In this document: positions 3,022 through 23,121 of the stretch, in pieces
Position numbering within the stretch: the stretch's first letter is position 1
Layout of the letters: every line of letters starts with the position of its first letter
DNA from: Candidatus Saccharimonadota bacterium
GTDB lineage: Bacteria > Patescibacteriota > Gracilibacteria > Absconditabacterales > Absconditicoccaceae
Direction of reading: 5' to 3'
DNA: 32,000 nucleotides
NCBI GenBank assembly: GCA_000503875.1
Contig: CP006913.1
Location: forward strand, 390,001-422,000
Program-made: the position numbers and the translations under genes
The notes under the pieces: model-generated
What the model saw: only the letters and a program-made list of their open reading frames with translations
What the model was told of the DNA's origin: nothing
The model's database searches: none

Positions 3022-5733
3022 ATGAACAACAAAACAAAATTTCTTAAATTTGGTATTGCAGTACTCTTGGGAGCAGGAGTTGTAGGTGGATTACTCTATG
3101 CCCAACTCAATATCCCTACAGATATTGATAATGCAGTAATGACTATTAAACAAATCAATATTACGTCGGATGGTCAAGCAACTACGCCCAAAATTGTTAT
3201 TGATGGTAGTGCATCAGATGGTAATTTTCTTAAAGTTGAATGAAGTATATTGATGGGAAGTATTACAGGATCTATTGGTCAAATAAATAAAGTATCAGGA
3301 GATAAATCAAGTATTCTTTGAGGAGTGAAAAATACGATAAATGGAGATTATTCGATAATTCCATGATGATCATATAATCAAGTGACAGGAACAGATTCTT
3401 ATGCTTTTGGAAATACAGTAAGAGTTAATGGTAGTCAATCATATGCAATTTGAAAATCTTTAATTTTGAATTGAAATGGTTCTTTTGTCTTTTCAGATGG
3501 AAAGCCATCAAATTTTACCGTTTCTAAAGATTGAGTTTTTATTGTAAAAGTTACTAACGGAGTAGGTATCAATACATGAGTAACAACTACAGGTTATGAC
3601 TTAACCGTTGCAGGTAGTGGTATCGTTTACGGTAACCTCAAAACAAACAATATGATAGCTGGAGCGTATTATTATGGATCAATAACTAGTGAAGATGATC
3701 AATACGAACTCAAATTAAGCCAATGGGAAGGAATAGGAAATATTTATTATAATTCATGATATGTAGGAATTGGAACCAATAATCCTACAGCACAACTCCA
3801 TGTAAATGGAACAACAATATTACAAGGGTTATCAACATCAACACAAACTACAGCTTTGGTTGTAGACGCCAATGGAAATGTAGGTACAAGAGCATTAAAC
3901 ACAGTAGCATTTAACGGATATACAGCGCCAGTAACATCAGTATCAGGAAGAACTGGAGCAGTAGTATTAACAAAAACAGATGTAGGATTGGCAAGCGTAG
4001 ACAATACAGCAGATATGGCTAAACCAGTTTCAACAGCGACACAAACAGCATTGAATCTCAAAGCAAATTTAGCAAATCCAGCCTTGACAGGGATACCAAC
4101 AGCACCAACAGCATCGACATGAACAAGTACAACTCAAATAGCAACAACAGAATTTGTAAAATTACAATGATATTTGACTACTGCTACAGCACCAGTAACA
4201 TCAGTAGCAGGAAAAGCTGGAGTAGTACTATTAACAAAGGCAGATGTAGGATTGGCAAATGTAGACAATACAGCAGATATGGCTAAACCAGTTTCAACAG
4301 CGACACAAACAGCATTGAATCTAAAAGCAAATCTAGCAAGTCCAGATTTGACAGGAATACCAACAGCACCAACAGCATCAATAGCAACAAACACAAATCA
4401 ACTAGCAACAACAAAATTTGTAAAAGATCAATGATATTTGACTATTGCTACAGAAGCAGATCCACAAGTGGGAACATTGACAAGTGGAAGATGGTGTACA
4501 ACAGATGGAACAACAGTAAATTGTGCAACAGTAGCACCAGTAACTACAGAAAGTGATCCACAAGTAGGAACACTAACTTCTGGTAAAATGTGTACAACAA
4601 ATGGAACAACGGTAAATTGTACGACAGATATTCCAGTAACTCCGACAAATTATGTAACAACAGATACAAATCAACCAGTAGCATGAATTAAAACATTTAG
4701 CAATAATACTATTTTCAACGGAAATGTAGGAATTTGAACAACAAGTCCTCAAAGTAAACTTCATATATTTGCACCATCACCAGTTCTTACATTAGAAGGA
4801 ACTGTTGATGATACCACAAAAATCAATTTTATTGATGATTGATCAGTTGTATGAGAACTTTCTGTTGATCGTAGTAGTGGTTTAACAAAACTTTGGACAA
4901 CAGAGCCTCTTTCTTTTTGATCAGCTAATGCGGAAAAAATGCGTATTTTACAAAATGGAAATGTAGGAATTTGAACAGCAAGTCCAGCAACAAAACTTCA
5001 TGTATATTGAGTAGATGGTTCATTCCCAGCTCGTATATCAAGTCCAGCTGGTTATATAGATATTGGACCATCAAATGCTTCGTGGGCACACATTTATACT
5101 GATAGACCAAATTTTATTTTTAATGCATGAGTCTACATTATAGGAGGAAAATTAAGTACATATGATACAGCTAGTCTACAATTACAAACAAATGGAACAA
5201 CAAGAATCTTCGCTGATAATACCAATGGTAATGTAGGAATTTGAACAACAACACCAGCAGCAAAACTTCATGTGGCATGATCAATTTGAGCTACTTCTTG
5301 GATTGGTGCGTGATGTGAGTGAGCTTGTGAATCATGAGGAGGATATTCTCTTTTGTACGCAGATGGAACAATTGTAGCAACAAGTTCAGTAACAGCAGCA
5401 GCATTCTACTATTCATCAGACATCACTCTCAAAAAAGATCTTACAAAAATTACAAATCCATTGGAAAAAATCATAGCATTAAATGGATATAATTTTACAT
5501 GGAAATCAAATGATAAAAAAGATATTTGAGTGGTTGCACAAGAAGTAGAAAAAGTATTTCCAGAAGCTGTTAAAGCAGATGCCAAAGGATTAAAATCAGT
5601 TGAATATGGAAACTTAGTTGCTCCAATTATCGAAGCAATCAAAGAATTATATACCAAATACCTAGATCAACAAACACAAATTTCCGAGCTAGAACAAAGA
5701 ATTGAAATATTAGAAAAGAATATAATTAAATAA
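3022..5733 (+). CDS. tail-fibre-like surface fibre protein (903 aa) with an N-terminal membrane anchor or signal and a C-terminal intramolecular-chaperone (peptidase S74-like) domain
   Basis: Single frame from ATG 3022 (alternative TTG 3004) to TAA 5731-5733, with dozens of in-frame TGA and no TAA/TAG; checked codon by codon. N-terminus MNNKTKFLKFGIAVLLGAGVVGGLLYA. Repeated NVGIGT(T/A)SP..KLH(V/I) motifs. Two 88-aa repeats contain GxxGAVVLTKxDVGLxxVDNTADMAKPVSTATQTALNLKA...TGIPTAPTA...TNQ(I/L)ATTxFV, a classic phage tail-fibre repeat. Confidence 0.85.
3922..4449. repeat. 2 x 264-bp tandem repeat encoding the tail-fibre repeat module
   Basis: 3922-4185 versus 4186-4449 are near-identical over long stretches (gatgtaggattggcaa..gtagacaatacagcagatatggctaaaccagtttcaacagcgacacaaacagcattgaatct). 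Confidence 0.85.
5413..5730 (+). other. peptidase S74-like intramolecular chaperone / autocleavage domain of the fibre protein
   Basis: SSDITLKKDLTKITNPLEKIIALNGYNFTWKSNDKKDIGVVAQEVEKVFPEAVKADAKGLKSVEYGNLVAPIIEAIKEL followed by a coiled-coil tail. This matches the S-D-x-x-x-K ... G(F/V)xAQEVxxVxPExV ... YxxLxxxxIxAIKEL pattern of endosialidase/tail-fibre chaperone domains. The predicted cleavage Ser-Asp is at 5416-5421. Confidence 0.8.
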
Positions 5734-5814
5734 TAATTCAAAATCTGAATTAAATAATTTTCCAAAAATTATGAATATTGTTTATTATACAATCTTTACT
5801 AATTATAAATAATA

Positions 5815-8800
5815 ATGGGAAAGCTCAAAAAAACATGAATTATACTTGCTATATTTTGTATATCACAGATAATTTTTTCCGGTTTTGCTTTTGTATCTCC
5901 GATGTTAGTTATCAATAATACAGGGAATAATGCAAAAATACTTCCTATGAGAAAATGATGTCAACAGATAATCAATAATTGTGCTTATCCGATAGGAATA
6001 CTTATGTATCCTTCTTCAGCAACAAAATCATTTTTTGAAAACAAACCATCATGTGTAGTGTTGAGTGAGTGTGTAAAGACTATAAAATGTCCTGGTACAC
6101 TTCCTACAAATACAGAATGGAATACAAGTAGTAATTATGTACAAACATTTGATGGATTTAAATGGGTACCAACAAAAACTGCACATTATGATGCTACACC
6201 AGCATCAGATGATTGTAGATATGATTGTAAAACCAATTATTCATGGAACGGAACTAGTTGTATAGCGGATACAAGAACATATACATGTGCTGCAAAACCA
6301 ATAGGAACAGTGCGAAATACAGTAGGTAATTATTTACAAACATGGAATGGTACAACTCGAACACCATTAGATAGTACAACAAGTTATAGTACAACAGTAA
6401 GTACAAATTCTTGTAAATATAAATGTGATGTTTGATATAGATGGGATACTACAACTTCAAGTTGTATAAATACCTGTGCATTGCCATGGTGATGATGAAC
6501 AAAAACACATTGAGAAACAATAACAGCATATGATAAAACAAGTGGAACATGTACAACAAATAATTGTGCATCCGAAACACGTACATGTAATGGAGCGCTC
6601 TGAACATTTGATTGAACATATCAATATGCAAGTTGTACTCAAAACGCAAACACCCAAAGCTGTGTAATAGCAAACGGAGTAGGAACTCAATCATGTACAG
6701 CATGATCAACAAGTCGATGAACTTGTAATGTAGTAAGTTGTAACGCAGGATACCGTGCATCATGAAATACATGTGTAAATACATGCGCATTACCATGGTG
6801 AGGAACAATTACAAATGGACAATCAGTAACAGCATATGATAAAACGAGTGGAACATGTACAACAAATAATTGTGCATCAGAAACACGTACATGCAATGGA
6901 ACACTTTGAACATTAAATGGAACATATCAATATGCAAGTTGTACTCCAAACGCAAACACCCAAAGCTGTATAATAGCAAACGGAGTAGGAACTCAATCAT
7001 GTACAGCATGATCAACAAGTCGATGAACTTGTACTTTAGTAAGTTGTAACGCAGGATATCGTCCATTATGAAATACATGTATAAATACCTGTACATTACC
7101 ATGGTGATGAACAATTACAGATGGGCAACCAGTAACAGCATACGATAAAACAAGCGGAACATGTCCAACAAATAATTGTGCATCACAAATTCGTGTTTGT
7201 AACGGAACACTTTGAACATTAAATGGAACATATACGTATCAAAATTGTACAGCAAATGCAAATACGCAAAGCTGTACTGTTTCTAATGGTTGAGGAAATC
7301 AATCATGTGCAATATGATCAACAAGTCGATGATCATGTATAGTAAACCGATGTACTACAGATTATTATGATGATGGTTGAGCTAATGATTGTGTACATGT
7401 AGGAAATTGATATTATTCTAATAGTACATCAACAACAAGAACAGCATGTACAAATTATCCAGATACAGCAAGTCGTAATTATACATATACAAGTGCAGGA
7501 AATGGAACGAATAGTTGTACAGCAACATATACAGAATTATGTTGATTGGATTTATACGAGAATCCAATTGGAGTGTGTAGTGCAGTAGGAAACTGATATT
7601 TTTCACCAATAAACAATAATAGTAGAACATTATGTACAAATTATCCAGATACAGCAAGTCGTGATTATACATATACGAGTGATGGAAATGGAGCAAATAG
7701 TTGTACAGCAACATATACAGAACTATGTTGATTAGATTTATATGAAACATCAAATTGAGTGTGTAGTGCAGTAGGAAACTGATATTTTTCACCAATAAAT
7801 AATAATAGTAGAACATTATGTACAAACTATCCAGATACAGCAAGCCGTGATTATACATATACGAGTGATGGAAATGGAGCAAATAGTTGTACAGCAACAT
7901 ATACAGAACTATGTTGAGTAGATTTATATGAAACATCAAATTGAGTGTGTAGTGCAGTAGGAAACTGATATTTTTCACCAGCGAATAATAATAACAGAAC
8001 ATCATGTACAAATAAACCATCATACTCAACATATACAACTGATGGAAATGGAACAAATACTTGTTCACGAACTTGTGATACATGATATCACACAGAAGAT
8101 GGTGTTACTTGTATTTCAAATACGAAAACAACAAGTTGTACTGGGAAACCATTAGGAACGACATATTATACTGCAACAGATATAACACAAACATGGAATA
8201 CTAGCTTAAGTGCATGGCTTCCAAGTGCTGTAGCAACATACAGTACAACAGCAAGTACAACAGAATGTAGATACACCTGTGCAGCTTGATATCTTCGAAA
8301 TGGATCTTCATGTGTAGCGTGATGTAAAACTAATAGTGATTGTAGTTTATGAAAAATATGCCAATGATATGTAGCCCCTACTCGAAAATGTTTAGGAACT
8401 CAATTAAATAATTGATCTTGTAGTCAAGAGCCACTCCCATGATTTTGTGATAGTGAAGATTCTCCTTGTAGTACATATGATACATATTATGATTGTCAGG
8501 ATACGGATCGTTGTCATCTAGGAAAGCCTGGTATATGTAACCGAAATTGAACCTCTTGTATATGAATTACTAGTCAAACTACATGTAGTGCGACAGCATG
8601 ATGTTCAGTAAGTAATACATCATCAGAAGTATTTTGAACCTGTGTAACACCTACTCCTGTCTGTGGAAATGATATTGTAGAGATAGGGGAAACATGTGAT
8701 TGAGGAAGTCAATCATGTAGTATTGGAGGTGTAGCAGGAACTCAATTATGTAATAATACATGTAGTTGATATGGTACTTGTTTAGTAAGTCCATGTATAG

Positions 8801-9933
8801 CAAGTTATAATACAGATGTATGTTGATGATGTAAATGAAGTTGGACTATGTCAAGTTGTGATAATCGTGAATGTACTCCTGATGGTCTTGAAGATGCAAT
8901 ATGGAATTGTTCTTATGCTTGAATAACAAAACAATGTTATTCAGTATTAGGAGATCCATGTAATACATCAACATGTTTTACCTCTGGTACTCAAGTAAAA
9001 ACAGCAGATGGAATAAGTAAAAATATTGAAAATATTCAAATAGGAGACGAATTATTAGGTCAAGACGATCAAATAAATACTGTTATTGCATATGACCGTC
9101 CAAATCTTGGAGAAAGAAAACTTTATAGCATAAATAATGGACCATATTTTGTGACTCATGAACATCCATTTATGACTATATGATGATGGAAATCTATAAG
9201 TCCAGAAGCAACTCGAAGAGAAATGCCTAACTTTGAAATATTACCACTCAAAGTGGGAGATATTCTTATAAAAGAAAATAATGAAATTGAGTACATATGG
9301 AGTATCCAATCAACGACAGCAGATCCAGAAATACCATTATACAACTTTAAATTAGACGGAAATAATACTTATTATGCAAACGGATATTTAGTACACAATA
9401 AATTATATGATTGAGATGGTTGTACATTAAGTTCTCAATGTGCATGTGGATCTTGTGTTGGTTGAGTATGTTGTCCTACAGGAGGAGGCTGATGTTTCAA
9501 AGAATGAACACAAGTACGTTTACCAGATGGAACAACAACAGCTATAGAAAATATTCAAACAGGAAATATTGTATTATGATCAGAAAATACTCAAAACACA
9601 GTTCTCAAATTATTTAAAATCTGGAATAATAATTGGGATCTTTATGCAATAAATAATTCTGATTATTTTGTTACTGATACACATCCATTTATGACAACAG
9701 AAGGATGGAAATCATTGAATCCAGTATGATCTAGCAAAGAAAATCCAGGTATGATATTCTGACAACTTGAAATTGGTGATATACTTATAACAGAACAAGG
9801 AACAACTATTATATACTCATTAGAAAAAACAGCATATGCATGATATGTATATAATTTTAGATTAGATGGAAATAAAACATATTACGCAGATTGATATCTA
9901 GTACATAATGTAGAGATAAAATCTGTTGAATAA
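5815..9933 (+). CDS. giant secreted cysteine-rich repeat protein (1372 aa) ending in two tandem Hint (bacterial intein-like) domains
   Basis: One frame from ATG 5815 to TAA 9931-9933 with TGA = Gly; I walked the whole frame and found no TAA/TAG. N-terminal hydrophobic segment GIILAIFCISQIIFSGFAFV. Three ~102-aa repeats (CxLPWGG.I..G..V.AYDKTSGTC.TNNCAS..R.CNG.LG...). Four 62-aa repeats (VGNGYFSP.NNN.RT.CTNYPDTASR.YTYTS.GNG.NSCTATYTELCG.DLYE). One CGNDIVEIGETCD motif resembles the myxococcal Cys-rich repeat. Two Hint domains follow. Confidence 0.85.
6475..7395. repeat. 3 x ~306-309-bp coding tandem repeat (Cys-rich CxLPWGG module)
   Basis: Unit starts at 6475, 6784 and 7090 (tgtgcattgccatggtga / tgcgcattaccatggtga / tgtacattaccatggtga), with long near-identical stretches. 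Confidence 0.85.
7399..8142. repeat. 4 x 186-bp coding tandem repeat (VGNGYF...CTNYPDTASR module)
   Basis: Unit starts gtaggaaa(t/c)tgatat at 7399, 7585, 7771 and 7957. Copies 2 and 3 are almost identical. Confidence 0.85.
8974..9399 (+). other. Hint domain 1 (bacterial intein-like, 142 aa)
   Basis: Starts CFTSGTQVKTADG (block A Cys1), contains VTHEHPFMT (block B TxxH) and ends YYANGYLVHN (block G HN). The next residue is Lys, not Cys/Ser/Thr. Confidence 0.8.
9493..9909 (+). other. Hint domain 2 (139 aa), 31 aa downstream of Hint 1 in the same protein
   Basis: CFKEGTQVRLPDG ... VTDTHPFMT ... YYADGYLVHN, followed by only VEIKSVE and the stop. Confidence 0.8.
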
Positions 9934-9961: not shown

Positions 9962-11167
9962 ATGAAACAGAAAATGACTTTCAAAAATCTAGAAAAAAAT
10001 ATATTTGTTGTTGGGATATTGTTTTTTTGAATAATAGGTGTCATTTTTGCTATAAATACTCAGAATGAATGATGGAGAATTACTAAAAGTGGTAGCTCAG
10101 CAACAGTTAATGTCCATAATGAATGTCGCGTTGTTACAAATAACCGTACAGATAATGATATTTTTGTACCAACAAGTTCAAGCGCAGAATGGCTATCTTT
10201 TAGAAATAATTTACCAACTAATGTTATTTTAGCTGAATGTGCAACTTGTTGATCTGCAAATTGATGAAGTTTTTCTCATCTTTTACCAACTGCTTCAACA
10301 CTTTGTCCCTCAGGAGTGACAGCAACTAATTTTCAATATCACGAGGGAATGATGGCAAAAGCCACTATATTTGGTGCAGTATATGCTGATTATATTGATG
10401 GTTATCGAGATTGGAATTGTGGTATATCTTATTGTTTTGCAAGTCATACGGTTGCCGGAGATCCTCCGACAAGTTATACATGTTCAGAGTCAGATTCAGC
10501 TTGTAGTTTATATTTTTCTGATACATGTTATAATACAAATACCATATGAGCAACCATCTGTGGTGTCGGAAATCATAAGGCAACATGTACCAGTGCATGA
10601 TGGGATGATGGGGGATGGTGTAGTGCGACATGTTTTGTAGAAAACACTCCTGTATTAATAATGGATGGATCTCATAAAAATATACAAGATGTTATTATTG
10701 GTGATATATTATTAGGTAAAGATAACACACCAAATAAGGTTATTGATTATTATCGTCCTATATTATGAGCAAGAAAATTGTACAGTATAAATAATGGTTT
10801 ATATTTTGTAACTCCAGAGCATCCATTTATGACGCTATGATGATGGAAATCTATAAATCCAGAAGCAACTCAAAGAGAAATGCCTAATTTCGAAATACTA
10901 CCCCTTAAAGTAGGTGATATATTGGTTAAAGAAAATGGAGAATCAGAATATATACGAACAATGTCATCAATATCAGTAGATCCAGAAACTCAATTATATA
11001 ATTTTAAATTAGATGGAAATAATACTTATTATGCAAATGGATACTTAGTACATAATAAATCACAGTGTCTCACTAATTCCGATTGTTCATCTGTTGGAGT
11101 TGGTTCTTGTTGTAATAACGGAACTTGTACAATACTTGTCAATTGAGTACGACCGACATGTAATTAA
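9962..11167 (+). CDS. secreted cysteine-rich protein (401 aa) with a Hint domain and a 36-aa Cys-rich C-terminal tail
   Basis: ATG 9962 to TAA 11165-11167, one frame with TGA = Gly. N-terminal TM/signal NIFVVGILFFGIIGVIFAI. Motif DIFVPTSSSAEWLSFRNNLP. Hint domain. Tail KSQCLTNSDCSSVGVGSCCNNGTCTILVNGVRPTCN. Confidence 0.85.
10631..11056 (+). other. Hint domain 3 (142 aa)
   Basis: CFVENTPVLIMDG ... VTPEHPFMT ... YYANGYLVHN. About 80% identical to Hint 1 at DNA level by eye (for example EMPNFEILPLKVGDIL is shared). Confidence 0.8.
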
Positions 11168-11575
11168 ATAAGTATCAATAAGAAAAGTGATTTTATATTT
11201 TATAAAACCATGAAGAAAAGTATACTGATTATAATTATATTGGTAGTTTTTTCATGAGTTGGTTTATTATTAGCAGCAAACCAATGATATTTTTGATATT
11301 GAGTGTCAAATACATTATCGGTAGCAAAATTAAATCAATCAGCAGGTTCAGCTGGAGCCGTATCTACATCAGTTTCCAAAGTAGAAGAGCATGGTATATG
11401 TAAAACAATAACTTCTACCAACACTAAACTTCTTTTTGTTCCTACAAAAACTGCAACAGAACGATCAACTTTTATAACAAAAAAACCAAATCATATAATA
11501 CTTGGTTCATGTGGATGTACAACGAATTCTGATTGTAGTGTTTGAAGTATATGTTCATGATATGTTGCTGGGGCA
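11166..11575. repeat. copy A of a ~410-bp duplicated module (upstream region plus first ~120 codons)
   Basis: aaataagtatcaataagaaaag... through ...tgttcatgatatgttgctgg matches 12150-12560 with scattered substitutions. Confidence 0.8.
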
Positions 11576-12052
11576 TGATATTGTGATGGAGAATTTGTAT
11601 ACAATAGTCCTGCATATTGTCAGAACGATTGTCGTGATGGACCTACTTGTGATCCTTGTACTGGAGTGACAAATCAGTGGGATTGCGAATCACAAACTCA
11701 GTGAGATCCTTGATATGAGTTTCAAGCTTGTTCTCGAATACCTGAGCAACCATGATGAACAGCTTATTGTGGTCAAGAATTTAGAACCCAAAGTGAATGT
11801 AATACTGCTCCTTCTGAATGTACTTGGGTAAATTGAACAGCAACACCATGAACGTGTGTTGCTCCAGTTGCTGTTTGTTGAAATGGTATAATTGAAGGTA
11901 CAGAACAGTGTGATGAACCAGCAAATATGTGAGATATGACTTCTTGTTCACGGACAGAAAATCTTCAACAGAAATGTAGCTCATGTCATTGTCAAACAAC
12001 CTGTCAGTCATATATAGATCCTAATGCTTGAAGAGTAGTTTGTTCAATGTAG
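11210..12052 (+). CDS. secreted cysteine-rich protein (280 aa), a Hint-less member of the family
   Basis: ATG 11210 to TAG 12050-12052 with 16 in-frame TGA (hand count). Signal/TM SILIIIILVVFSGVGLLLAA. Conserved ICKTITSTNTKLLFVPTKTATERSTF, CGCTTNSDCSVGSICSGYVAG and CGNGIIEGTEQCD motifs. Confidence 0.8.
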
Positions 12053-12149: not shown

Positions 12150-12560
12150 AAATAAGTATCAATAAAAAAGGTAATTTTATATGTAATTAAATTATGAAAA
12201 AAAACTTATTAGCCATAATACTATTGATAATTTTTTCATGAGTCGGTTTATTGCTAGCAGCAAATCAATGATATTTTTGATATTGAGTATCAAGTACATT
12301 ATCGATAGCAAAATTAAATCAATCAGCAGGTTCAGCCGCAGCAATATCTACTACAATCCCAAAAATAGAAGAGCATGGTATATGTAAAACAATAACTTCT
12401 ACTGACACTAAACTTCTTTTTGTTCCTACAAAAACGGCAACAGAACGATCAACTTTTATCACAAACAAGCCAAGTCATATAACGCTTGGTACCTGTGGAT
12501 GTACAACAAATGCTGATTGTACTGTAGGACAAATTTGTTCATGATATGTTGCTGGAGCAA
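12150..12560. repeat. copy B of the ~410-bp duplicated module
   Basis: See copy A. The junction motif tttttttcttgattg(t/c)aaaa also recurs after both terminators (12127-12148 and 13821-13842). Confidence 0.8.
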
Positions 12561-13777
12561 ATTCTTGTCAAGGATCTTATGAATCAACATCTTTTTGGTG
12601 TGTATGAAAATCAATTCCTGATAGTTCTCCTCCATACGTTTGTATGAAGTCAGGTGAACCTTATCAATTAGTTCCAGCAGATTGATGTCCATCAGGTCGA
12701 AGTTTATGATTTATTCAATGATGATCTATTCTGTCTGTATCAGAAACTCTATGTCAGATTATAGACCAAACTGATTTTCAATTACCTAATTGTGAGTATA
12801 AATGTAATACATATACAACATCATCTACTTGTAATGCTAATTCATCATATTGTGATTGGGTATCAAGAAATAACTCATTATCTTGTTCTTCATTTAACCA
12901 AACAACATGTCAATCAACAAATGGTTGTGATTGGGTACCTTGAACACCAGTAACATTAGGAACTTGTACAACTCAAATATGTGGTAATGATATTAAAGAA
13001 TGAACAGAATTGTGTGATGGTTATGATCTTCAAATACCGTGTACTACGACTTTATGAAAAGTTTGAACAAAATACTGTAATAGTACCTGTAATTGATATA
13101 CTACTTGTGTAGCAGATCCAACACCACCATCATGATCAACTTGTGTCCCTAAAAATTGTTTTATAGCTGATACAAAAATTAAACTAGCTGACGGTAGCAC
13201 AAAGCCAATTCAAGAAATAACAACAAAAGATATCGTATATAGTGTATCATGAAAAAAGAATAAAGTAATATGAACATCAAAAAGATTGGATACGACACCA
13301 CTTTATGCATTTAACAATAGTAATCATTATTTTGTAACAGAGGCACATCCGTTTCTTACATTAGATGGATGGAAATCACTAAATCCAGACGCAACAAATC
13401 AAGAAAATCCATGATTGATGGTAACTAAATTATCTATATGAGATATATTAATCACAGAAAAATGAACTACCACATTATTTGCTATCGATTCTATCCCAAA
13501 CAAACAAGGAACATATGTATACAATATTACTGTAGAAAACACCCATGATTATTATGCTGATTGATATGCTGTTCATAATAAATTACAATGTTTAGATATT
13601 GGCTTATATCCATGTGATGGTTGAATGTATTGTGCTGATAATGCATCTCAATGTGAACAATGTCCTGTTGGACTATGTGATCCATGTACTAGTACTTCTC
13701 AATGTCCTGTAGATAGTTATTGTCATTCTATAAATAAAATGTGTCGACCGAGTAGCTGACCAGTTTGTGCATTATAA
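12194..13777 (+). CDS. secreted cysteine-rich protein (527 aa) with a Hint domain and a 65-aa Cys-rich C-terminal tail
   Basis: ATG 12194 to TAA 13775-13777, one frame with TGA = Gly. The first ~120 aa are near-identical to the 11210 gene. Contains a CGNDIKEGTELCD motif, a Hint domain and the tail KLQCLDIGLYPCDGGMYCADNASQCEQCPVGLCDPCTSTSQCPVDSYCHSINKMCRPSSGPVCAL. Confidence 0.85.
13157..13579 (+). other. Hint domain 4 (141 aa)
   Basis: CFIADTKIKLADG ... VTEAHPFLT ... YYADGYAVHN, followed by Lys. Confidence 0.8.
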
Positions 13778-13828: not shown

Positions 13829-13888
13829 TTGATTGCAAAACAGGAATAACTATCCTAAATACAATTTTTATTTTTTCGTTAAAAGTAT

Positions 13889-14947
13889 ATGTTCAAAAAA
13901 TTAATTCTGATTTTAAATATATGAATATTGTTTTTTTCTTTTGGTTTTGCTTACAAAGAACTCATTATCCAAAATATCGATAAAAAACCAGTGAGAGTTA
14001 TTAAAGTAATTTTGGATGGGCAACATTATGTAGTAAGTTCTGTAGCAGAGGATGGGGGAGCAACGCTTCAAGAACTTACCAAAAAAGTTGGTGGGGATAC
14101 TGCCGTCAATGGAACGTTCTTTTGTCCCGATGATTATAGTTCTTGTGGAGGGACGACTCATACAAATTCAGAAAGAATTTATCTATGAGATGGGGCGTCT
14201 TGGAGCAGACATCGACCTGATACAAGTATCAGAATGGTGTTCTGATTTGATAAAGATTGAAATTCTGCATTTGTTCAAAATAATATGGGAAAATTGATCG
14301 ATGCCTGATTATGGATCAAACCAGATCAAAAGAAATTAGAATCATTACAATTTTGAATAGGATGATTTCCTGCTTTTCTTCTTGAAGGTGAGGATGTCGT
14401 AGAGTGATATAATGCATATCTTGATACCAAAATGAATACTGCAGGCAATAAAACATTTATTTGTTCAACAGAAGATTGATCTACAATTTATATGTGAGTT
14501 GTATGATGAATAAACATTCCCCAGATGCCGGCATATCTCAAAAAAAACTTTGATTGTCGAAATGCACTCAATCTTGATGCAGGAAATAGTATAGGTATGA
14601 TATATTCCGGGTTTGTTCTTGATCAGAGTAATAGAACGAGAATTATGGATGCTTTTGTTGTATTAACGAGAGAACAATATATCAATCTTACAAGAATAAC
14701 TCCATCAAATAAAACACCTTATGATGCAGAAGAACAATATCAACTTACCGAAAAAGATCAGCAAAAGGTCAAAACTATTTACAATGCATTACAGCCGTTT
14801 ATTATACAAAATGGAACAAAACAAAAACGAAGCTTTATTTCATTGCTTCGTTCAGCAGTTACTGCTCCAAAAATCGTTGCAGATCCACAAAAATTAGCAA
14901 TTATCAAAGATTTGCTCTGGAGATTCTTTGTCATTTGAGAGTTATAA
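13889..14947 (+). CDS. probable phosphodiester glycosidase family (DUF2233/NAGPA-like) exported protein, 352 aa
   Basis: ATG 13889 to TAA 14945-14947, one frame with about 13 TGA (walked by hand). N-terminal hydrophobic segment. Motifs AVNGTFF and ALNLDAGNS resemble the NGGFF ... NLDGGGS signature of that family. The assignment is from memory. Confidence 0.5.
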
Positions 14948-14949
14948 AA

Positions 14950-14973
14950 AAAGCCCACTTGGGGCTTTTTTCT
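14950..14973. terminator. bidirectional terminator between the DUF2233-like gene and nusA
   Basis: aaaaaa-agccc-acttg-gggct-tttttt, with an A-run and T-run on either side. Confidence 0.65.
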
Positions 14974-14989
14974 TATTATTTGATTATTA

Positions 14990-16027
14990 CTATCTAATTT
15001 CAATTGCATATCCTGTAAGTTGACCGGCTAATTTTACATTTGATGCTCACTTTCCAATAGCTAATGGTTTTTGAGATTCATCCATAGTAACAATAGCTTT
15101 CTTATCTTTGATTTCTATAGTATCTACATGTGCTGGTTTGAGACAATTTTTGATCATCTGTTTACTATCTCCATTGTTTTCTACAAAATCGATTTTTTCA
15201 CCATCAAGAAGTGATAAGACGGTATTGATTCTATCTCCCTTACTTCCTACCATTACTCCTACTGGATCGATTTTCTCATCAGTTGATGATACGACAATTT
15301 TGGTTTTCAAACCAGGAATTCTTGCCATTTTTTCTATTTTAATAATTCATTCTTCAAGTTCTGGTACTATTTTTCTTAGGATTGCTTCGATATATTCAGT
15401 ACTTGTCTGAGTAATTTCCAATACGATTCCACCTTGTCCTTTAGAAATTTGCTTCAAAAGTACGAAAATTTCTTCACCTGGTTCATATGATCTATTTGGA
15501 ATTTGTCCTTCAGCACCAAGAACCACAGCTGTTCCTTCAATATCTAAGATTACGCTATCAGCATGTACTCTGATAACTCTTGCTTTGAGAAGTTCTCATT
15601 GTTTGTTTTGGAATTTTTCGTAGAATCTTTCTCTTTCGATATTTTTGAGGTTTTGCTTGATTGTTTGAGCAGCAGCTTGTGAAGCAATTCTAGAAAGTTC
15701 AAGTCTTTCAGGAGTTACATTGATCAAAATAGCTTCTCCTACTTCCACATCTTTTCTAATTTTTTTAGCTTCTTTAAGGATAATTTGCAATTCTGGATCT
15801 TCTATTTCGCTTTCCTTATTTACTACGATCAATTCTTTGTATATAGTTACTGTTCCATCATTTTCGATATTTACAATAATTTGTGATTTTTTAAATTCAG
15901 GAAAATCTTTTTTGAAACCAGATTTAATTCCTAATTTTACGATTTCTAATACGCTATACGGATCGAATTTATAATCATCTACAAGTTGCATAATAGCTGC
16001 TTGGATACTTTTACCATCTAATCTCAT
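14990..16027 (-). CDS. nusA: transcription termination/antitermination factor NusA (345 aa)
   Basis: ATG at 16025-16027, TAG at 14990-14992, three in-frame TGA. S1 and KH regions align to E. coli NusA from memory (KIDPVGVMVGSKGDRINTV; AIGK-G-ASNVKLAGQLTGY, where TGA 15047-15049 sits on the conserved Gly of GxxG). Confidence 0.9.
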
Positions 16028-16054
16028 GGTTTTTTGTTTAGGTATAAAAGACTA

Positions 16055-16082
16055 CAAAAAAATAAGGATAAGCTTATCCTTA
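16055..16082 (-). terminator. perfect 20-nt palindrome (taaggataagcttatcctta) with a flanking A-run. It is a terminator/attenuator-like hairpin in the nusA leader region.
   Basis: 16063-16082 is self-complementary. On the minus strand it is followed by a U-run (A-run 16055-16062 on plus). Function uncertain. Confidence 0.35.
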
Positions 16083-16223
16083 TACTGCGATGATAGATAT
16101 TTCAATGAGCTTTTCAATGGGAAATATAATGAAATAATCTACTTCCAATTGAAAAAACCTATCAAATAATTAATCATTAATTGTTAATTCATAATATAAA
16201 GATATTAATGTTTATTTTTTATT

Positions 16224-16354
16224 GTTACTTTTTGCTCCCAGGTCAAAAAGTAACCAAAAACCCCTCGTGAGCTGTTACATTTTCTTAACGGTAGAAAATA
16301 TAAACAAATTCGACTCCATATATTTTCTTTACCTAAAAATGTAAGCGCTCACCT
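16224..16354. repeat. left copy (131 nt) of the inverted repeat bracketing gltX; itself a multi-hairpin element
   Basis: Its reverse complement matches 18083-18186 plus 18254-18280 with 3 mismatches. Internal hairpins: gttacttttt/aaaaagtaac (16224-16254) and gtgagc.gttacatttt ... aaaatgtaa..gctcac enclosing ggtagaaaatata/tatattttct.tacc. Confidence 0.9.
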
Positions 16355-16380
16355 TTAATTTTAAATCATTAATTAAACTT

Positions 16381-18024
16381 ATGACTACTCGAAAAGAAAT
16401 TGCAGACAAGATATTCCCAAATGTAACAGAAACTATTCAAGATCTCGAAAAGAAATATCCAACAAGACAAAACCCTATTTGTTCGCGTTTTGCACCAAGT
16501 CCAACAGGATTTTTGCATATTGGAAGCGTATTCGCCTCATTCGTAGAACAAAGATTTGCTAAACAATATGGTGGAACTTTTTTGTTGAGAATAGAAGATA
16601 CAGATCAAAAAAGAGAAATTCCAGGAGCTGTTGATCTGATTATTGATTGATTAAAATTTTTTGGTATTGAAATAGATGAAGGTCCCTTAGGAGCAAATAA
16701 TGCCGATATAGGAAATTATGGGCCATATATACAATCTCATAGAAAATCTATTTATCAGGTATTTGTAAAAACATTGATAGAACAAGGAGTAGCATATCCA
16801 TGTTGGATGTCTGAAACAGAATTAGAAGAAATTAGAACACAACAAACAACGCTCAAAGTTACCCCTGGAATCTATGGAAATTATTCCTTATGGAGAAATA
16901 AAACACCAGAAGAAATTATGCAGAAATTACAAGAAGATCCTAATTTTGTCCTAAGATTTCGTTCTCATGGAGATTTTAGTCAAAGATGTCTTTTTGATGA
17001 TGTGATCAAGGGCAAAATCAATATGATCGATAATTATAATGATATTGTTCTTATTAAATCAGATGGCTTACCAACCTATCATTTAGCGCATATTGCTGAT
17101 GATCATTTGATGAGAACTTCTCATGTTATTAGAGGGGACGAATGGCTTACTTCTGTGCCTTTACATATTCAATTATTCAAAGCATTTAACCTTCCACATC
17201 CGCAATATTGTCATGTAGCCCCTTTACTCAAAATTGATGAAGAAGGAAATAAGAGAAAACTTTCCAAAAGAAAGGATCCAGAGGCTGATGTTGCTTATTT
17301 TTTTGAAAGTGGATATGCACCAGAAGGTATTATGGATTACTTGCTGACTATCATAGATCCAGCATATGAAGAACGACAAAAGGCAAATCCAGATAAAAAC
17401 TATCTCGATTTCGAAGTAAAAATTGAACATATGAATACCTCAGGAGCCTTATTCGATTTTGTAAAGCTGCAAAGCATGAATAATGCCTATCTTTCCAAAA
17501 TTTCAACAGATGAACTCTATAGTCAAAGCCTTATTCGAGCTAAAAAATACAGGCCATACCTAGCAGATCTTATGCAAAGTGACGTTGATTATACCAAGGC
17601 AGCGCTCAATATAGAAAGACATACCGAGAAAGATCCAAAGAGATTTACTACGTTTCAAGACGTAGAATCGCAAATTCTCTTCTTTTATGATGAGGAATGG
17701 GAAAAACTCCTTCCAACCAAGCCAACACTTCCAGAAATGTGTACAGCTGATAGTATGAAGCCATTTATCGACGAATATAAACAACAATTAAATCTGGATA
17801 TGTCACTCGAAGATCGATTTACTCAACTTAAAGAAGTTGGAAAACGTCACGGATTTGCTTCCAACAACGCAGAATTCAAAGAATGATGATATGTCGGGAA
17901 GGTCGGGGACCTTGCTATGTTTATGAGAATACAACTTTGCTGTACAGCAAAGACCCCCGACCTTTACTCAGTTATGAAGGTTCTGGGAAAAGATAGAGTA
18001 ATTGAGAGATTAGGAAGATTATAA
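16381..18024 (+). CDS. gltX: glutamyl-tRNA synthetase (547 aa)
   Basis: ATG 16381 to TAA 18022-18024, with three TGA (16648, 17884, 17887). Class I motifs RFAPSPTGFLHIGS (HIGH) and KLSKRK (KMSKS). TGA 16648-16650 aligns with Gly in the E. coli segment IMDGMNWL. Confidence 0.9.
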
Positions 18025-18082
18025 AATATTATATCAATAAAAAATTATTCAAAGTCGATAGCGCAAATCTAAACCAATAAAT

Positions 18083-18280
18083 AGGTGAGCGTTTACATTT
18101 TTAGGTGAAGAAAATATATGGAGTCGAATTTGTTTATATTTTCTACCGTTAAGAAAATGTAACAGCTCACGAGGGGCTTTTGGTTATACTCGAACACCCA
18201 AAGAATCTTTAAAGAACTTGCTTTGGGATGTGAGAGGTGTATGCTTTAGTATACTTTTTGACCTGGGAGCAAAAAGTAAC
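18083..18280. repeat. right copy (198 nt) of the gltX-bracketing inverted repeat, carrying a 67-nt extra segment
   Basis: See the left copy. The extra segment 18187-18253 is flanked by the direct repeat tatact (18185-18190 and 18250-18255) and has its own hairpin cccaaag/ctttggg. Confidence 0.9.
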
Positions 18281-18314
18281 GTAGAGAAAAAATATATTTT
18301 TCTATTTTTTTTGT

Positions 18315-18560
18315 TAAAAAAAATCGCTAATCGAAACGACTAGCGATCCAAATGAGCGCTAGGTGCTGGTTTTATCAAACCAATCTGAATACAGATATAA
18401 CCTAATTCTCATTTATTTCTATCTGCCTCCGTTTGGTACAGATGCTAGATAGGGTGTTTTAGGAGGAAATACACTCCAACATAGCACCTAATCGCAGGTA
18501 TTCATGTGTAGTGAAGCCTTTGCTAAGTTAACTATGTTGTTTTAATTATATCCAGAACCA
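18315..18560 (-). ncRNA. candidate structured small RNA of unknown class (about 200-240 nt)
   Basis: Non-coding gap. On the minus strand it ends in ggatcgcta-gtcgtttcgat-tagcgat followed by a U-run (plus 18322-18350), a good intrinsic terminator. A long-range 12-bp helix pairs gcgctaggtgct (18356-18367) with agcacctaatcgc (18482-18494) and encloses small hairpins (atctg-aata-cagat; ggttt-tatc-aaacc). The 5' end and the strand are not certain. Confidence 0.4.
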
Positions 18561-18621
18561 AAAAATTTACCAAAAAAGAGTATCTAGGACTATAAAATGA
18601 GGTTGACATTTTTTTAAAAAC

Positions 18622-18654
18622 AAAAAAAACTCGACATCCTATAAGGAGCGAGTT
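18622..18654 (-). terminator. possible terminator of the 327-aa gene
   Basis: Stem aactcg (18628-18633) pairs with cgagtt (18649-18654) across a 15-nt loop, with a U-run on the minus strand (A-run 18622-18629). Confidence 0.4.
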
Positions 18655-18656
18655 TA

Positions 18657-19640
18657 TTATAATTCAGTTTTTGAAGGTATATTTTCTTCCAAATATTTTT
18701 CAATAATATGTGGAATATCCAATTCCATAATATCTATATTTTTCTTTAGATATTCCATTATTGGATGATTGTCTAATCCTTCAAAAGGAATAACGGTTAC
18801 TTTATCACTTTGAAAGAACATAATGGGTTGTGTCTCTTGTTCTTTAATTACAATTAGATCAAAGTTATTGTTTTTCTTCTGTATAGATACAGAAACACTA
18901 TCTTCCAATTGTACATAGCTAGGCGGCACACCCAATTCTTTGGAAATAGTAATAAATTTTTTTACTCCCGAAGTTTCATTTGCAAAGATATCAATACTGA
19001 CAGTAACATTATCTTTTGTAAAAGAATTAATAGTTCTTTTGTTCGGAAATAATAATTCAATTCTCTCTTTTTTTGTTAAACGGTTCTTTTTAAACACCTT
19101 TTTTTTATAGGAAGGACGATTAAGAACATATTTATCAAAAAAACTTTGATTCTGTGTTTTGAATAAACGATTATCATAAGGCACAGAACTAGCTAAATAA
19201 GCTTTGGAAGCTGTGTAATTTCCTTTAGATACTCGAATACCAAAGAATTCTTCGAACAATTCGTTTCCATCGAATATGTAAGCGGGTATTTGTTTTATAA
19301 TATATTCAAATACAGGAGTCCATAATGCGATGGTATCGGTTTTTAGAGTTTTTGCCACATGAACATGTAGCGTTTCTCCATTGCCGAATTTTTCATCTTT
19401 TTTTTGTTCGTTGAACTCCGATTTGAACTTCCTATTCTTAAAATAATAGGGGTAATCTTCTGTGATTGGATCCGTAATGATAATCTCATAAGGAAGTTCT
19501 TTTTCAAAATCATTTGGAGTATTATACCACTTCTTAGAAATTTGCACTTCTCCATGGTAATACAATCTCCACCACCATTCTTTTGCCGACAAGTTTTCTG
19601 TCGGTAATGGTTCTTTTTCTACCGACATTTTTGTTTTCAT
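18657..19640 (-). CDS. hypothetical protein (327 aa), with no Cys and no TGA
   Basis: Uninterrupted ATG (19638-19640) to TAA (18657-18659) ORF. Lys/Glu/Phe-rich, with WWW and YY clusters near the N-terminus. No domain recognised. Confidence 0.7.
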   Translation of the reverse strand: MKTKMSVEKEPLPTENLSAKEWWWRLYYHGEVQISKKWYNTPNDFEKELPYEIIITDPITEDYPYYFKNRKFKSEFNEQKKDEKFGNGETLHVHVAKTLKTDTIALWTPVFEYIIKQIPAYIFDGNELFEEFFGIRVSKGNYTASKAYLASSVPYDNRLFKTQNQSFFDKYVLNRPSYKKKVFKKNRLTKKERIELLFPNKRTINSFTKDNVTVSIDIFANETSGVKKFITISKELGVPPSYVQLEDSVSVSIQKKNNNFDLIVIKEQETQPIMFFQSDKVTVIPFEGLDNHPIMEYLKKNIDIMELDIPHIIEKYLEENIPSKTEL

Positions 19641-19698
19641 TTTTTTATTGTTTTTATTTAGTATTTACTTATATCTATTTACATAATAAAGTCAATAC

Positions 19699-19725
19699 AA
19701 AAAAAGACAACCACGTAGGTTGTCT
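19699..19725 (-). terminator. rho-independent terminator of gyrB
   Basis: agacaacc (19705-19712) pairs with ggttgtct (19718-19725). On the minus strand this is followed by 7 U (A-run 19699-19705). Confidence 0.75.
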
Positions 19726-19752
19726 TTAATATAAAATAATGTATTTAAATGA

Positions 19753-21684
19753 CTAAATATCTACGTCTTTTGCAGATTTTGCATGAGTGAGAATAAAATG
19801 TTTTCTTGATTGAACATCTTCTCCCATCAAAATTCTAAATAATCTATCTGCTTCTTCAGCATCTTCAACAGTAATTTGATTGAGTTTTCTATTGTTAGGA
19901 TCCATGGTTGTAGACCAAAGTTGTTCTGCGTTCATTTCTCCAAGTCCTTTATATCTTTGAATTTCAGTTTTCTCTGGGTTCATTCCAAAGTCTGCTGGTG
20001 TTTTATCTTCATCGTAAACATATACTTCTTTCTTTCCTTCATTAAATTTAAAGATAGGAGGACAAGCTGCATATACATGACCATTATCTACCAAAGGTCT
20101 CATAAATCTAAAGAAAAACGTCAAAAGAAGTGTTCTAATATGTGCTCCATCAACATCGGCATCAGTCATGATAATAATTTTTTCATATCTCAATCCTTCA
20201 AGATCAAAACTTTCTTTAATTCCTGCTCAGATAGCAGTAATAAGAGATTTTACTTCAGCATTACCCATAATTTTTTGGATACTAGCTTGTTCTGTATTGA
20301 GAATTTTACCTCTCAAAGGCAAAATAGCTTGGAAGCTACTATCACGACCTTGTTTTGCACTTCCTCAGGCAGAATCTCCCTCGACAATATACATTTCAGT
20401 ACCTTCTTTTCCTCTCTTAGAACAATCTGATAGTTTTCCTGGAAGTACTCATCAAGCAAGTACATTTTTTCTCAAAACGGTCTCTTTTGCTAGTTTTGCA
20501 GCCAATCTAGCTCTAGCAGCAAGCTCCATTTTTTCAAATATTTTATTGAATTCATCTTCGTTAGCAGTGAAAAAATCTTTGAGATAGGTATAGGTAATAA
20601 CTTCTACTTCTTTTCTTACATAACTATTTCCTAATCTTCCTTTAGTTTGTCATTCGAATTGTGGTTCAGGAATCTTTACCGAAACGATAGCATAAAGCCC
20701 ATCAGTAACGTCAGAATATTGAAATTCCCCAATTTTCTTATTTATTTTATCTTTCTCTTTAGATAATTCATTGATAACATTAAGTAATGCAGATCTAAAC
20801 CCAAGTACATGGGTTCCACCATCTGTTGTTGGAATGTTATTTACAAATGAAAGGGTATTGTCATTATTGGTATTAACCAATTGAAATGCTATTTCTGCAA
20901 GACAATTTTCTCCTTCTCTTTGAAAATAATGTGCAGATGCAATAGTTTGTTGTTCTCCAACAAGGTTTTTGAGCCAAGTTTTGATTCCTCATTCAAAATA
21001 GAATCTTTGTCTATATCCGTTTTTCTTATTTACGAAATTGAAAGTAACACCAGGTGTTAAATATGCTGATTGCTTCATTCTTGCAAGTTCTATACTTTGA
21101 GAAAATTCTATAGTTTCAAAAATAGTTGAATCTGGCATAAATTTAACAGTTGTTCCTATTTTATCACTTTCACCAATTTCTTGGATTTCTCAGATAGGAA
21201 TACCTCTTTCAAATCTTTGAAAATATTTTTTTCCATTTTTGTAAACAGTAACTTCTAATCGTTCAGAAAGCGCATTTACTACAGATGCTCCCACTCCATG
21301 AAGTCCTCATGAAATTTTATAACTAGATTTATCAAATTTACCTCCTGCATGAAGTACAGTAAAAACTGTTTCCAAAGCAGATTTTCATGTTTTCGGATGT
21401 TTATCTACAGGAATACCTCTTCCATTATCATGTATACAAACAGATCCATCTTCTTGAAGGGTAGTAGTGATAGTTGTACAATATCCAGCCAAAGCTTCAT
21501 CTACTGCATTATCTACGATTTCTTGAATCATATGGTGAAGTCCTCTAGCATCAGTAGATCCTATATACATACCAGGTCTTTGTCTAACAGGTTCTAATCA
21601 TTCCAAAACCTTAATATGCGAGGCATCATATCCATGGCTATCTAAGTCACTATGGGTAGCTTGTTTCATAACTTCTTCTGTCAT
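19753..21684 (-). CDS. gyrB: DNA gyrase subunit B (643 aa)
   Basis: ATG at 21682-21684, TAG stop at 19753-19755 (reverse complement of cta). All track fragments (19753..20193, 20650..20880, 21385..21570) share one frame once TGA is read as Gly. Hallmark motifs [47 protein letters not shown] (TGA 20365-20367), [20 protein letters not shown] and [10 protein letters not shown]. Confidence 0.95.
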
Positions 21685-21763
21685 GTTTTTGTGATAGGGA
21701 GTAAATATTCTATTAGCGTTAAATTACTATTCTAAACAAATTTAACACATAAAATAACATTAT

Positions 21764-23053: not shown

Positions 23054-23121
23054 ACACAAAGCACAAAAGAATATAAAAAAACAAGTGGTATTTACTTAAT
23101 TATATAATAAATTGAAAATAA

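Follow-up and report, generated by a model that had tools for sequence, protein, structure and literature searches.

Two BIL-type Hint domains bracketing a small Cys-rich module at the C terminus of a predicted secreted protein from a TGA-recoded SR1 bacterium

The 32,000-nucleotide stretch of contig CP006913.1 analysed here (positions 390,001 to 422,000; hereafter called the window, whose own numbering is used throughout) belongs to candidate division SR1 bacterium RAAC1_SR1_1; on its + strand lies a gene for a predicted secreted, Cys-rich protein of 1372 amino acids (aa) at 5815-9933. The C terminus of this protein holds two tandem domains of the Hedgehog/intein (Hint) type that are separated by a 31-aa linker with six Cys residues. 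A first-pass annotation of the DNA had proposed this arrangement, and its coordinates and translation proved exact, albeit under genetic code 25 only. Judged from its sequence, the cassette appears to have four parts: a bacterial intein-like (BIL) Hint similar to the A-type, a small module stapled by disulfides, another BIL-type Hint in terminal position and a short stub. We consider double autoprocessing with release of the 31-aa module to be the most likely behaviour of such a cassette, with about an even chance of being correct. The activity of the Hints, the order of their reactions, and the fate and function of the peptide are inferred.

Both domains carry the residues expected of a working Hint. 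Hint1 (142 aa; 8974-9399, + strand) begins with its Cys1 (8974-8976), has the block B motif THEH at 9154-9165 and ends with His-Asn at 9394-9399; its flanking residues are Thr at position -1 and Lys at position +1. Hint2 (139 aa; 9493-9909, + strand) has the corresponding features at 9493-9495 (Cys1), 9673-9684 (TDTH) and 9904-9909 (His-Asn). It is preceded by a Gly/Cys-Phe junction (here and below, a slash marks the domain boundary), and it is followed by Val at position +1, which opens a terminal segment (9910-9933, + strand) composed of the 7-aa stub VEIKSVE (9910-9930) and a TAA codon. With Cys1, T-x-x-H and His-Asn all present, the two Hints are complete in their catalytic residues. Each contains a single Cys, the catalytic Cys1, compared with 91 Cys among the 1053 residues that precede Hint1.

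Profile and structural comparisons place the two domains in the same superfamily. Hint1 matches the Pfam family Hom_end_hint with 39.5 bits (curated cut-off 32.1) and Hint2 matches Vint with 29.1 bits (curated cut-off 27), while the scores against PT-HINT (PF07591), at 24.9 and 18.8 bits, both lie under the gathering cut-off of 27.7; the alignment of Hint1 to PT-HINT is nearly full length. When a profile of the family was compared with PDB entries, it matched inteins and BILs, and 6Y75/6TMM (BUBL1 BIL2) and 2LWY (the C. thermocellum BIL) each gave an E-value (E) of approximately 3e-15. An alignment-based AlphaFold model has a mean predicted local distance difference test score (pLDDT) of 88, with both Hints above 90, whereas a single-sequence model was uninformative (pLDDT 34). 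A Foldseek search with the alignment-based model placed BUBL BIL2 at the top, with a template modelling score (TM) of 0.80, followed by the gp41-1 intein and the C. thermocellum BIL, and the target-normalised TM for these three ranged from 0.75 to 0.84. Both domains are therefore predicted by modelling to adopt the Hint fold and to be members of the Hint (Hedgehog/intein) superfamily. Neither resembles a canonical intein in its setting: the +1 nucleophile (Cys, Ser or Thr) is missing at both Hints, where Lys and Val are found instead, and both domains reside in a Cys-rich surface protein that is specific to the lineage rather than in a conserved host protein. A recent tandem duplication of one Hint was also considered, and was ruled out because Hint1 and Hint2 share only 47% identity.

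As a separate observation, these Hints also match the AXH module of Ataxin-1/HBP1, both in Pfam (PF08517, to E 3e-7) and in PDB (4J2J and 1OA8, E approximately 1e-6). Because the match spans approximately the first 100 residues of the Hint, it suggests that AXH may be related to the N-terminal part, of about that length, of the Hint fold.

These domains become visible only under an appropriate genetic code. With table 11 the region splits into short open reading frames (ORFs), and long ORFs are obtained once TGA is read as a sense codon; the open frame around the 1372-aa gene then spans 5809-9933, with an ATG at 5815, a TAA at 9931-9933 and 61 in-frame TGA codons for Gly. All translations of window genes reported here use code 25 (TGA = Gly), and several lines of evidence establish that TGA codes for Gly rather than Trp in the window. 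The gyrB gene of the window has 10 in-frame TGA codons; at these positions the E. coli protein has Gly in 6 cases, including those within S-G-GLHGVG and EGDSA-G-GSAKQGR, and Trp in none. Where one member of an orthologue alignment has TGA, the others have TGA (34 cases), Gly (28) or another residue (14), and never Trp. The code-25 NCBI protein of the adjoining gene (P0004) is 100% identical to our translation of the ORF at 9962-11167. No tRNA gene able to support the recoding of TGA was found in the window. A phage origin of the window was rejected because it contains gyrB, rpoD, lepA, gltX and nusA, and with ruvA also present we regard it as chromosomal. The ENA copies P0122 and P0124 and the orthologues P0128, P0129 and P0011 had been translated with TGA as Trp, which corrupts conserved Gly positions; two of these, P0122 and P0124, were rejected as independent orthologues since they represent the same DNA translated with code 4.

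In databases the 1372-aa protein is AHB41181.1 and is named 'F-box associated region protein', a name for which we found no support. Misleading names are likewise carried by P0004, which shares this one, and by AHB41184.1, which is called 'Intein/homing endonuclease' even though it is without an endonuclease. The protein begins with a putative signal peptide or membrane anchor, MGKLKKTGIILAIFCISQIIFSGFAFVSPMLV (5815-5910, + strand), in which direct reading of the sequence reveals a basic n-region followed by about 20 hydrophobic residues. A Cys-rich repeat body follows (5911-8973, + strand) and includes a CKTNSDC module and a CGNDIVEIGETCD module, both of which are common to the paralogues encoded nearby. 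A Pfam search with this body and with the N-terminal bodies of the paralogues gave no match.

The linker, KLYDGDGCTLSSQCACGSCVGGVCCPTGGGG (31 aa, 6 Cys; 9400-9492, + strand), lies directly between the two Hints. Three of its Gly residues are encoded by TGA (9412, 9463 and 9490), its Cys residues are spaced as C-x5-C-x1-C-x2-C-x4-CC, and it includes the motif C-x-[TL]-x-S-[DQ]-C, of which every one of the four paralogues at the locus has a single copy. No family was matched when the linker and the C-terminal tails of related proteins were searched against Pfam.

Orthologues were sought by an exhaustive HMMER search over 1.84 billion representatives, which gave 4705 hits. Among the matches listed (the best 150 of the 4705), P0128 (729 aa, 69% identity) and P0129 (1435 aa, 64% identity) cover the whole tandem in one stretch. 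A word-indexed protein search returned only proteins of up to about 560 aa and neither of these two, even with a profile; scans of genome contigs and metagenome contigs yielded no close orthologue, only relatives of 26-61% identity, and no contig encoding P0004 was found. The DNA that encodes P0128 (L031) and P0129 (L032/L033) contains 89 and 31 in-frame TGA codons, respectively, and has a GC content of approximately 30-32%. On L032 the tandem-Hint gene is followed by NAGPA, nusA(-), gltX, a hypothetical gene(-), gyrB(-) and rpoD(-), which is the order found at 13883-23095 of the window, and on L031 a fibre-like gene with a Peptidase_S74 domain is located upstream and a paralogue lacking a Hint downstream. 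P0129 is orthologous to the 1372-aa protein over its full length. In P0128, an N terminus like that of the next gene in the window (ORF2, described below) is joined to the same C-terminal cassette as in the 1372-aa protein, and this combination shows the cassette to be shuffled between family members.

Comparison of the three cassettes (those of the window, P0128 and P0129) reveals marked differences in conservation along their length. Identity between orthologues is 43-46% over the last 150 residues of the body, 80-83% in Hint1, 34-52% in the linker and 64-69% in Hint2. The ratio of non-synonymous to synonymous differences (pN/pS) is 0.17-0.23 for Hint1 and 0.25-0.41 for Hint2, and both Hints are under purifying selection and have been selectively maintained. 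In each of the three orthologues, both Hints have Cys1, T-x-x-H and His-Asn without exception, so that the loss of catalytic residues from only one Hint in homologues, which the first-pass annotation had named beforehand as an outcome that would speak against its proposal, was not seen among them. Conservation of the tandem and of the linker Cys pattern in related genomes, to which it had pointed as a check, is borne out by the presence of the arrangement and of a four-Cys core at syntenic loci. All three proteins have Thr at position -1 of Hint1 and Gly at position -1 of Hint2, where the Gly/Cys-Phe junction is retained, and the window's terminal stub has its counterparts in PVIK and PGVK. 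The cassette is old enough for three SR1-type genomes to have it in common.

The linker itself, which measures 27-31 aa across the orthologues, combines a fixed scaffold with variable surroundings. Lys at position +1, the pattern C-x5-C-x4/5-C-x4-C, two Gly, one Pro and the Gly-Gly before Cys1 of Hint2 are invariant in the three orthologues, and the remaining positions (about 15) all vary; the window linker has two Cys beyond the conserved four. Such a pattern would be expected of a small module that is stapled by disulfides and has free loops, and equally of a spacer under purely structural constraint.

In the mechanism that we propose, Sec export of the Cys-rich surface protein would precede processing. 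Each Hint would form a thioester from the peptide bond that precedes its Cys1 (Thr/Cys at Hint1 and Gly/Cys-Phe at Hint2), and the terminal Asn of Hint1 would cyclise and thereby cut the chain at Asn/Lys. The 1053-aa body would be freed, or would be passed to a nucleophile via the Hint1 thioester. The 31-aa module, cut at both ends, would have a free Lys at its N terminus and a Gly-Gly C terminus held as a thioester on Hint2, which would be resolved by water or by an amine. An excised, thioester-activated 31-aa peptide, as the first-pass annotation had envisaged, is chemically plausible and a fair prediction because the required residues are conserved. Since the arrangement is kept in related genomes and resembles a ciliate system, the peptide is probably cut out with an activated end.

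The ciliate system in question is BUBL, and the first-pass annotation's view that the arrangement is unfamiliar among BILs is not supported: BIL domains of BUBL alternate with ubiquitin-like domains, and tandem Hint arrays are common in metagenomes. Published work indicates that BUBL BIL2 is flanked by two ubiquitin-like domains and joins the flanking one via a Lys isopeptide (PMC8616854); the BUBL literature cited there includes Dassa, Yanai & Pietrokovski 2004 and Chiarini et al. 2021. Like Tetrahymena thermophila BUBL1, the SR1 protein has several Hints in one polypeptide that alternate with small, independently folded modules, and BIL2 shares with the SR1 Hints both Cys1 and the terminal Asn, the residues replaced in its crystallised mutant (C1A-N143A), in addition to being their best match by profile (E 3e-15) and by structure (TM 0.80). 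BIL2 dispenses its upstream module through a thioester, and by analogy we propose the same for the SR1 cassette. The two systems differ in that BUBL is eukaryotic and cytoplasmic, whereas the SR1 protein is predicted to be exported and has its cassette at the C terminus, with only a stub after Hint2. The BUBL module is an approximately 75-aa ubiquitin-like domain, whereas that of SR1 has 27-31 aa, four to six Cys and no family match. Isopeptide transfer has been demonstrated for BUBL, whereas for the SR1 cassette it is hypothetical. By this analogy the cassette may be described as BIL-type Hint autoprocessing in a BUBL-like bracketed layout, and thus functionally as a putative bacterial counterpart of the ciliate layout, with tandem Hints as such not being unique to it.

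A-type BIL domains were reportedly described by Amitai et al. in 2003 and Dassa et al. in 2004, and the C. thermocellum BIL structure 2LWY is said to be that of Aranko et al. from 2013. The SR1 Hints share with this type Cys1, the block B T-x-x-H, a C-terminal His-Asn, the lack of a +1 Cys, Ser or Thr and the lack of an endonuclease insert, their membership being judged by similarity to the A-type structure 2LWY (E 3e-15). A-type BILs have been reported to carry the conserved C-terminal His-Asn and to occur in hypervariable regions of non-conserved bacterial proteins (PMC7765530), and the SR1 Hints likewise reside in a variable, non-conserved predicted secreted protein, as judged by the lack of a Pfam match for its body and the 43-46% identity of that region among orthologues. 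BILs, which lack the +1 nucleophile, yield cleaved products for the most part (PMC7664689). Unlike known A-type BILs, the SR1-type Hints appear as a subfamily to be characterised by a near-universal Lys at +1 and by Cys-rich C-exteins, and tandem pairs or arrays of up to eight are not described for BILs in the open literature that was searched.

Two further relatives deserve comparison. In Sec-exported polymorphic toxins, a HINT domain serves as the releasing peptidase just ahead of the toxin domain (PMC3482391; Zhang et al. 2012). As in PT-HINT proteins, large Sec-exported surface proteins are predicted here, with a Hint before a variable C terminus, arrays of paralogues and evidence of cassette shuffling. 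Unlike them, the SR1 proteins score under the profile cut-off, have no recognisable toxin or immunity gene, and end in Cys-rich modules of 4-125 aa or in stubs. The Hedgehog autoprocessing site has a conserved Gly-Cys-Phe, and Hint2 resembles the Hedgehog Hog domain in being a terminal Hint with a Gly/Cys-Phe junction, a likeness that would imply transfer or hydrolysis of the upstream segment. Unlike Hog, Hint2 is without a sterol-recognition region (only the 7-aa stub follows), retains the terminal His-Asn and is found in a bacterium.

A survey of the wider family helps to place the cassette. The nearest relatives of Hint1, P0006 and P0015, each have one Hint and a Cys-rich tail behind it, and the nearest relative of Hint2, P0011, comes from another TGA-recoded organism and has a single terminal Hint followed by PAIK. 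Tails were surveyed in 185 homologues whose last Hint ends in His-Asn: 121 have tails of at least 30 aa, 56 of which are Cys-rich, and 45 end in stubs no longer than 8 aa. The linker is homologous to the first sub-module of the usual Cys-rich C-exteins of this family, because 21 tails open with a matching pattern, K-x(1-3)-C-x(4-7)-C-x(3-7)-C; the openings of P0226 (KKACDLNNSCATGSICVGGQC) and P0234 (KAACDLNNECGVGMIC), for example, are comparable to the P0129 linker (KEACDLYNECPVGYICEGSYC). The cassette can accordingly be read as a 'Hint + opening of a Cys-rich tail' that is capped by 'Gly-Gly + terminal Hint + stub'. Lys follows the upstream Hint in 24 of 25 distant tandem homologues, which all retain Cys1 and His-Asn in that Hint (25/25), and occupies the same position in 57 of 73 single-Hint homologues. 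The downstream Hints of these 25 proteins retain Cys1 in 26 of 26 instances and His-Asn in only 11 of 26. Because BUBL BIL2 uses Lys isopeptide chemistry, the +1 Lys may be mechanistically important. Across the family as a whole, Lys follows His-Asn in approximately 80-95% of Hints, and a second class has Val and a hydrophobic tail (VDLFP...).

Tandem Hints are frequent in this family. Among the best 120 indexed hits, 50 have two matches to the Hint model and 2 have three, which leaves about 48 true tandems after split single Hints are discounted. The 125 representatives from the exhaustive search contain one (69 proteins), two (39), three (7), four (4), five (5) or seven (1) copies; P0127 has five Hints, and sequences read directly give six for P0130 and eight for P0144. 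P0144, P0130, P0127, P0126 and P0125 are metagenomic proteins with 3-8 complete Hints joined by K, KG, KGG or KGGS, some of which end in His-Asn-Lys. Of 92 linkers surveyed, 44 are of 4 residues or fewer, 77 start with Lys and 17 have two or more Cys. A recurring Cys-bearing linker is found on marine metagenome contigs (L008-L012), which encode proteins of approximately 1700 aa, exemplified by 2146-7320 of L011, which matches PHROG 358 with E 6e-213. These proteins end in two Hints joined by this conserved linker (K[C/T]CSVDAPGTCGNSGGS) and followed by a domain of about 120 aa that starts with KGGGG-TVICTALYNLGYL. Because L013 and L014 carry this same end domain behind one Hint, Hints are evidently gained and lost in a modular fashion. 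In the part of the open-access literature that was covered, we found no description of bacterial or phage arrays of tandem Hints or BILs, and nothing specific on Hint domains in Patescibacteria or in Cys-rich contexts.

Several observations weigh against the proposed processing. Outside its scaffold the linker evolves approximately neutrally (pN/pS 0.83-1.11, a noisy estimate from 27 codons), and it was folded without confidence in the alignment-based AlphaFold model (pLDDT 46-62). It resembles a truncated version of an ordinary C-extein and therefore could be a by-product. In most tandem homologues just 1-4 residues, for instance K or KG, separate the Hints, and for this reason tandem Hints do not generally seem to serve peptide-making. 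Finally, an oxidising extracellular setting could compromise the free thiols of Cys1.

Other explanations account for some of these data. In one that we regard as rather unlikely, the alpha- or epsilon-amine of Lys+1 would attack the Hint1 thioester, so that the body is rejoined to the mini-module and no free peptide arises, and a Hedgehog-like Hint2 would then activate the Gly-Gly end for hydrolysis or transfer, for instance to an acceptor on a host surface. The near-universal Lys after the upstream Hint (24/25 tandem homologues, 57/73 single-Hint homologues and 77/92 linkers) argues for such splicing, as do the extein-like sharing of the C-x-[TL]-x-S-[DQ]-C module between linker and protein body, the Gly/Cys-Phe junction of Hint2 with only a stub as its tail, and the Lys isopeptide made by BUBL BIL2. 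Ligation that needs no nucleophilic side chain has also been reported for an A-type BIL (Aranko 2013, as cited in PMC7664689). However, the products of BILs are mainly cleaved ones (PMC7664689), A-type BILs are stated in one review to be unable to ligate their flanks (PMC7765530), and many members of the family, 13 of the 45 with stub tails, end in His-Asn-Lys, where ligation would add nothing. We also think it unlikely that the cassette is a remnant of payload exchange, in which Hints act as releasing peptidases before variable payloads, the mini-module is degenerate, only one Hint matters in vivo, and the tandem originated by fusion of two cassettes, 'Hint + Cys-rich tail' and 'terminal Hint + stub'. 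Consistent with this history are the four paralogues with differing C termini, the resemblance of Hint1 and Hint2 to precisely these two types, the hybrid composition of P0128, the single-Hint versions of the L008-L012 end in L013 and L014, the role of HINT before toxin domains (PMC3482391) and the nearly full-length alignment of Hint1 to PT-HINT. Yet the PT-HINT score is below the cut-off (24.9 versus 27.7 bits), searches of the tails and adjacent genes revealed neither a toxin nor an immunity domain, the paralogues are complete genes, each with a predicted signal peptide, rather than orphan cassettes, and the tandem and its Cys scaffold are kept in three genomes with purifying selection on both Hints.

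Two more proposals are, in our view, very improbable. Head-to-tail cyclisation, in which the N-terminal amine of the peptide attacks its own Hint2 thioester to give a cyclic disulfide-rich peptide as a natural counterpart of peptide cyclisation by inteins, is pure speculation for the 31-aa peptide, and draws on geometry only: a free amine would be left at Hint1, a thioester would be formed at Cys1 of Hint2, and an unhindered Gly-Gly is present in three orthologues. Against it, the N-terminal residue is not Cys, which makes capture akin to native chemical ligation unavailable; the one-residue linkers of homologues cannot cyclise; and the Cys spacing of the window linker does not match a cyclotide framework. 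The domains might also have become structural or binding repeats that cleave nothing, a notion that has in its favour arrays of 5-8 Hints with trivial linkers, which are hard to explain by cleavage alone, and the loss of the terminal Asn from about half of the downstream Hints of tandem homologues. Against it stand the invariance of Cys1, T-x-x-H and His-Asn in both Hints of three orthologues, the presence of Cys1 in 51 of 51 Hints of tandem homologues, and the retention of one Cys per Hint inside a Cys-rich protein.

The 1372-aa gene is the first of four tandem paralogues that have similar signal-anchor N termini and share Cys modules, all on the + strand. ORF2 (9962-11167; identical to P0004) has a single Hint (10631-11056), which is 72% identical to Hint1, followed by a 36-aa tail with six Cys (11057-11164). 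ORF3 (11210-12052) has the N terminus and Cys modules of its paralogues and no Hint. ORF4 (12194-13777; AHB41184.1) again has a single Hint (13157-13579), with a 65-aa tail containing eleven Cys that starts at 13580. The genes 3' of the 1372-aa gene are these paralogues, NAGPA and nusA, and family searches of the tails, the linker and the paralogue bodies revealed no toxin or immunity domain in the tails or the neighbouring genes.

Some other genes in the window merit brief mention. Directly upstream of the 1372-aa gene, 3022-5733 (+) encodes a 903-aa fibre-like protein with repeats in the style of phage tail fibres and a C-terminal Peptidase_S74 domain (E 2e-15). This intramolecular chaperone is another self-cleaving C-terminal module, and the gene is syntenic in L031. 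Farther upstream, a 591-aa ORF (1066-2841, - strand) has a type IX secretion system (T9SS) sorting domain, Por_Secre_tail (E 4e-10); it has 56 Gly codons, 0 TGA and a higher GC fraction (0.37), whereas TGA makes up 10-55% of Gly codons in most other window genes. By these features the ORF seems to have been acquired recently from a donor of the Bacteroidota type, or is possibly a mis-assembly. At the opposite edge, an ORF that continues beyond the window end (29338-31998, - strand; at least 886 aa) has 36 TGA codons for Gly and an internal duplication of about 90 aa (ISENYSSKDLTA.NQLESGTIIK ... DFRSIDMIGPGR).

Should the SR1 cassette behave as predicted, it would provide the first example from bacteria of a small folded module set between two intein-like domains and produced with defined ends and an activated C terminus, a bracketed-release logic so far known only from the ciliate BUBL ubiquitin-like system. 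A bolder interpretation, which we consider distinctly doubtful, is that SR1 (Absconditabacteria) use the cassette as a BUBL-like dispenser, through which a disulfide-stapled 27-31-aa peptide with a Gly-Gly thioester, or the 1053-aa protein via the Hint1 thioester, would be conjugated to an amine on another molecule. Were this true, the acceptor might be, for instance, a surface molecule of the bacterium that hosts these epibionts, extracellular conjugation of proteins or peptides would proceed free of enzymes and ATP, and the arrays of up to eight Hints in phage and candidate phyla radiation (CPR) proteins would be multi-thioester conjugation devices. More generally, metagenomic and phage proteins commonly carry tandem arrays of 2-8 Hints, and the architecture 'Hint + Lys + Cys-rich tail' is widespread in Patescibacteria; we found no description of either in the searchable literature. 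The predicted processing, if true, would offer a compact natural scaffold for making peptide thioesters, and would hint at how genome-reduced, host-dependent SR1 bacteria mature or covalently attach Cys-rich surface proteins without dedicated enzymes.

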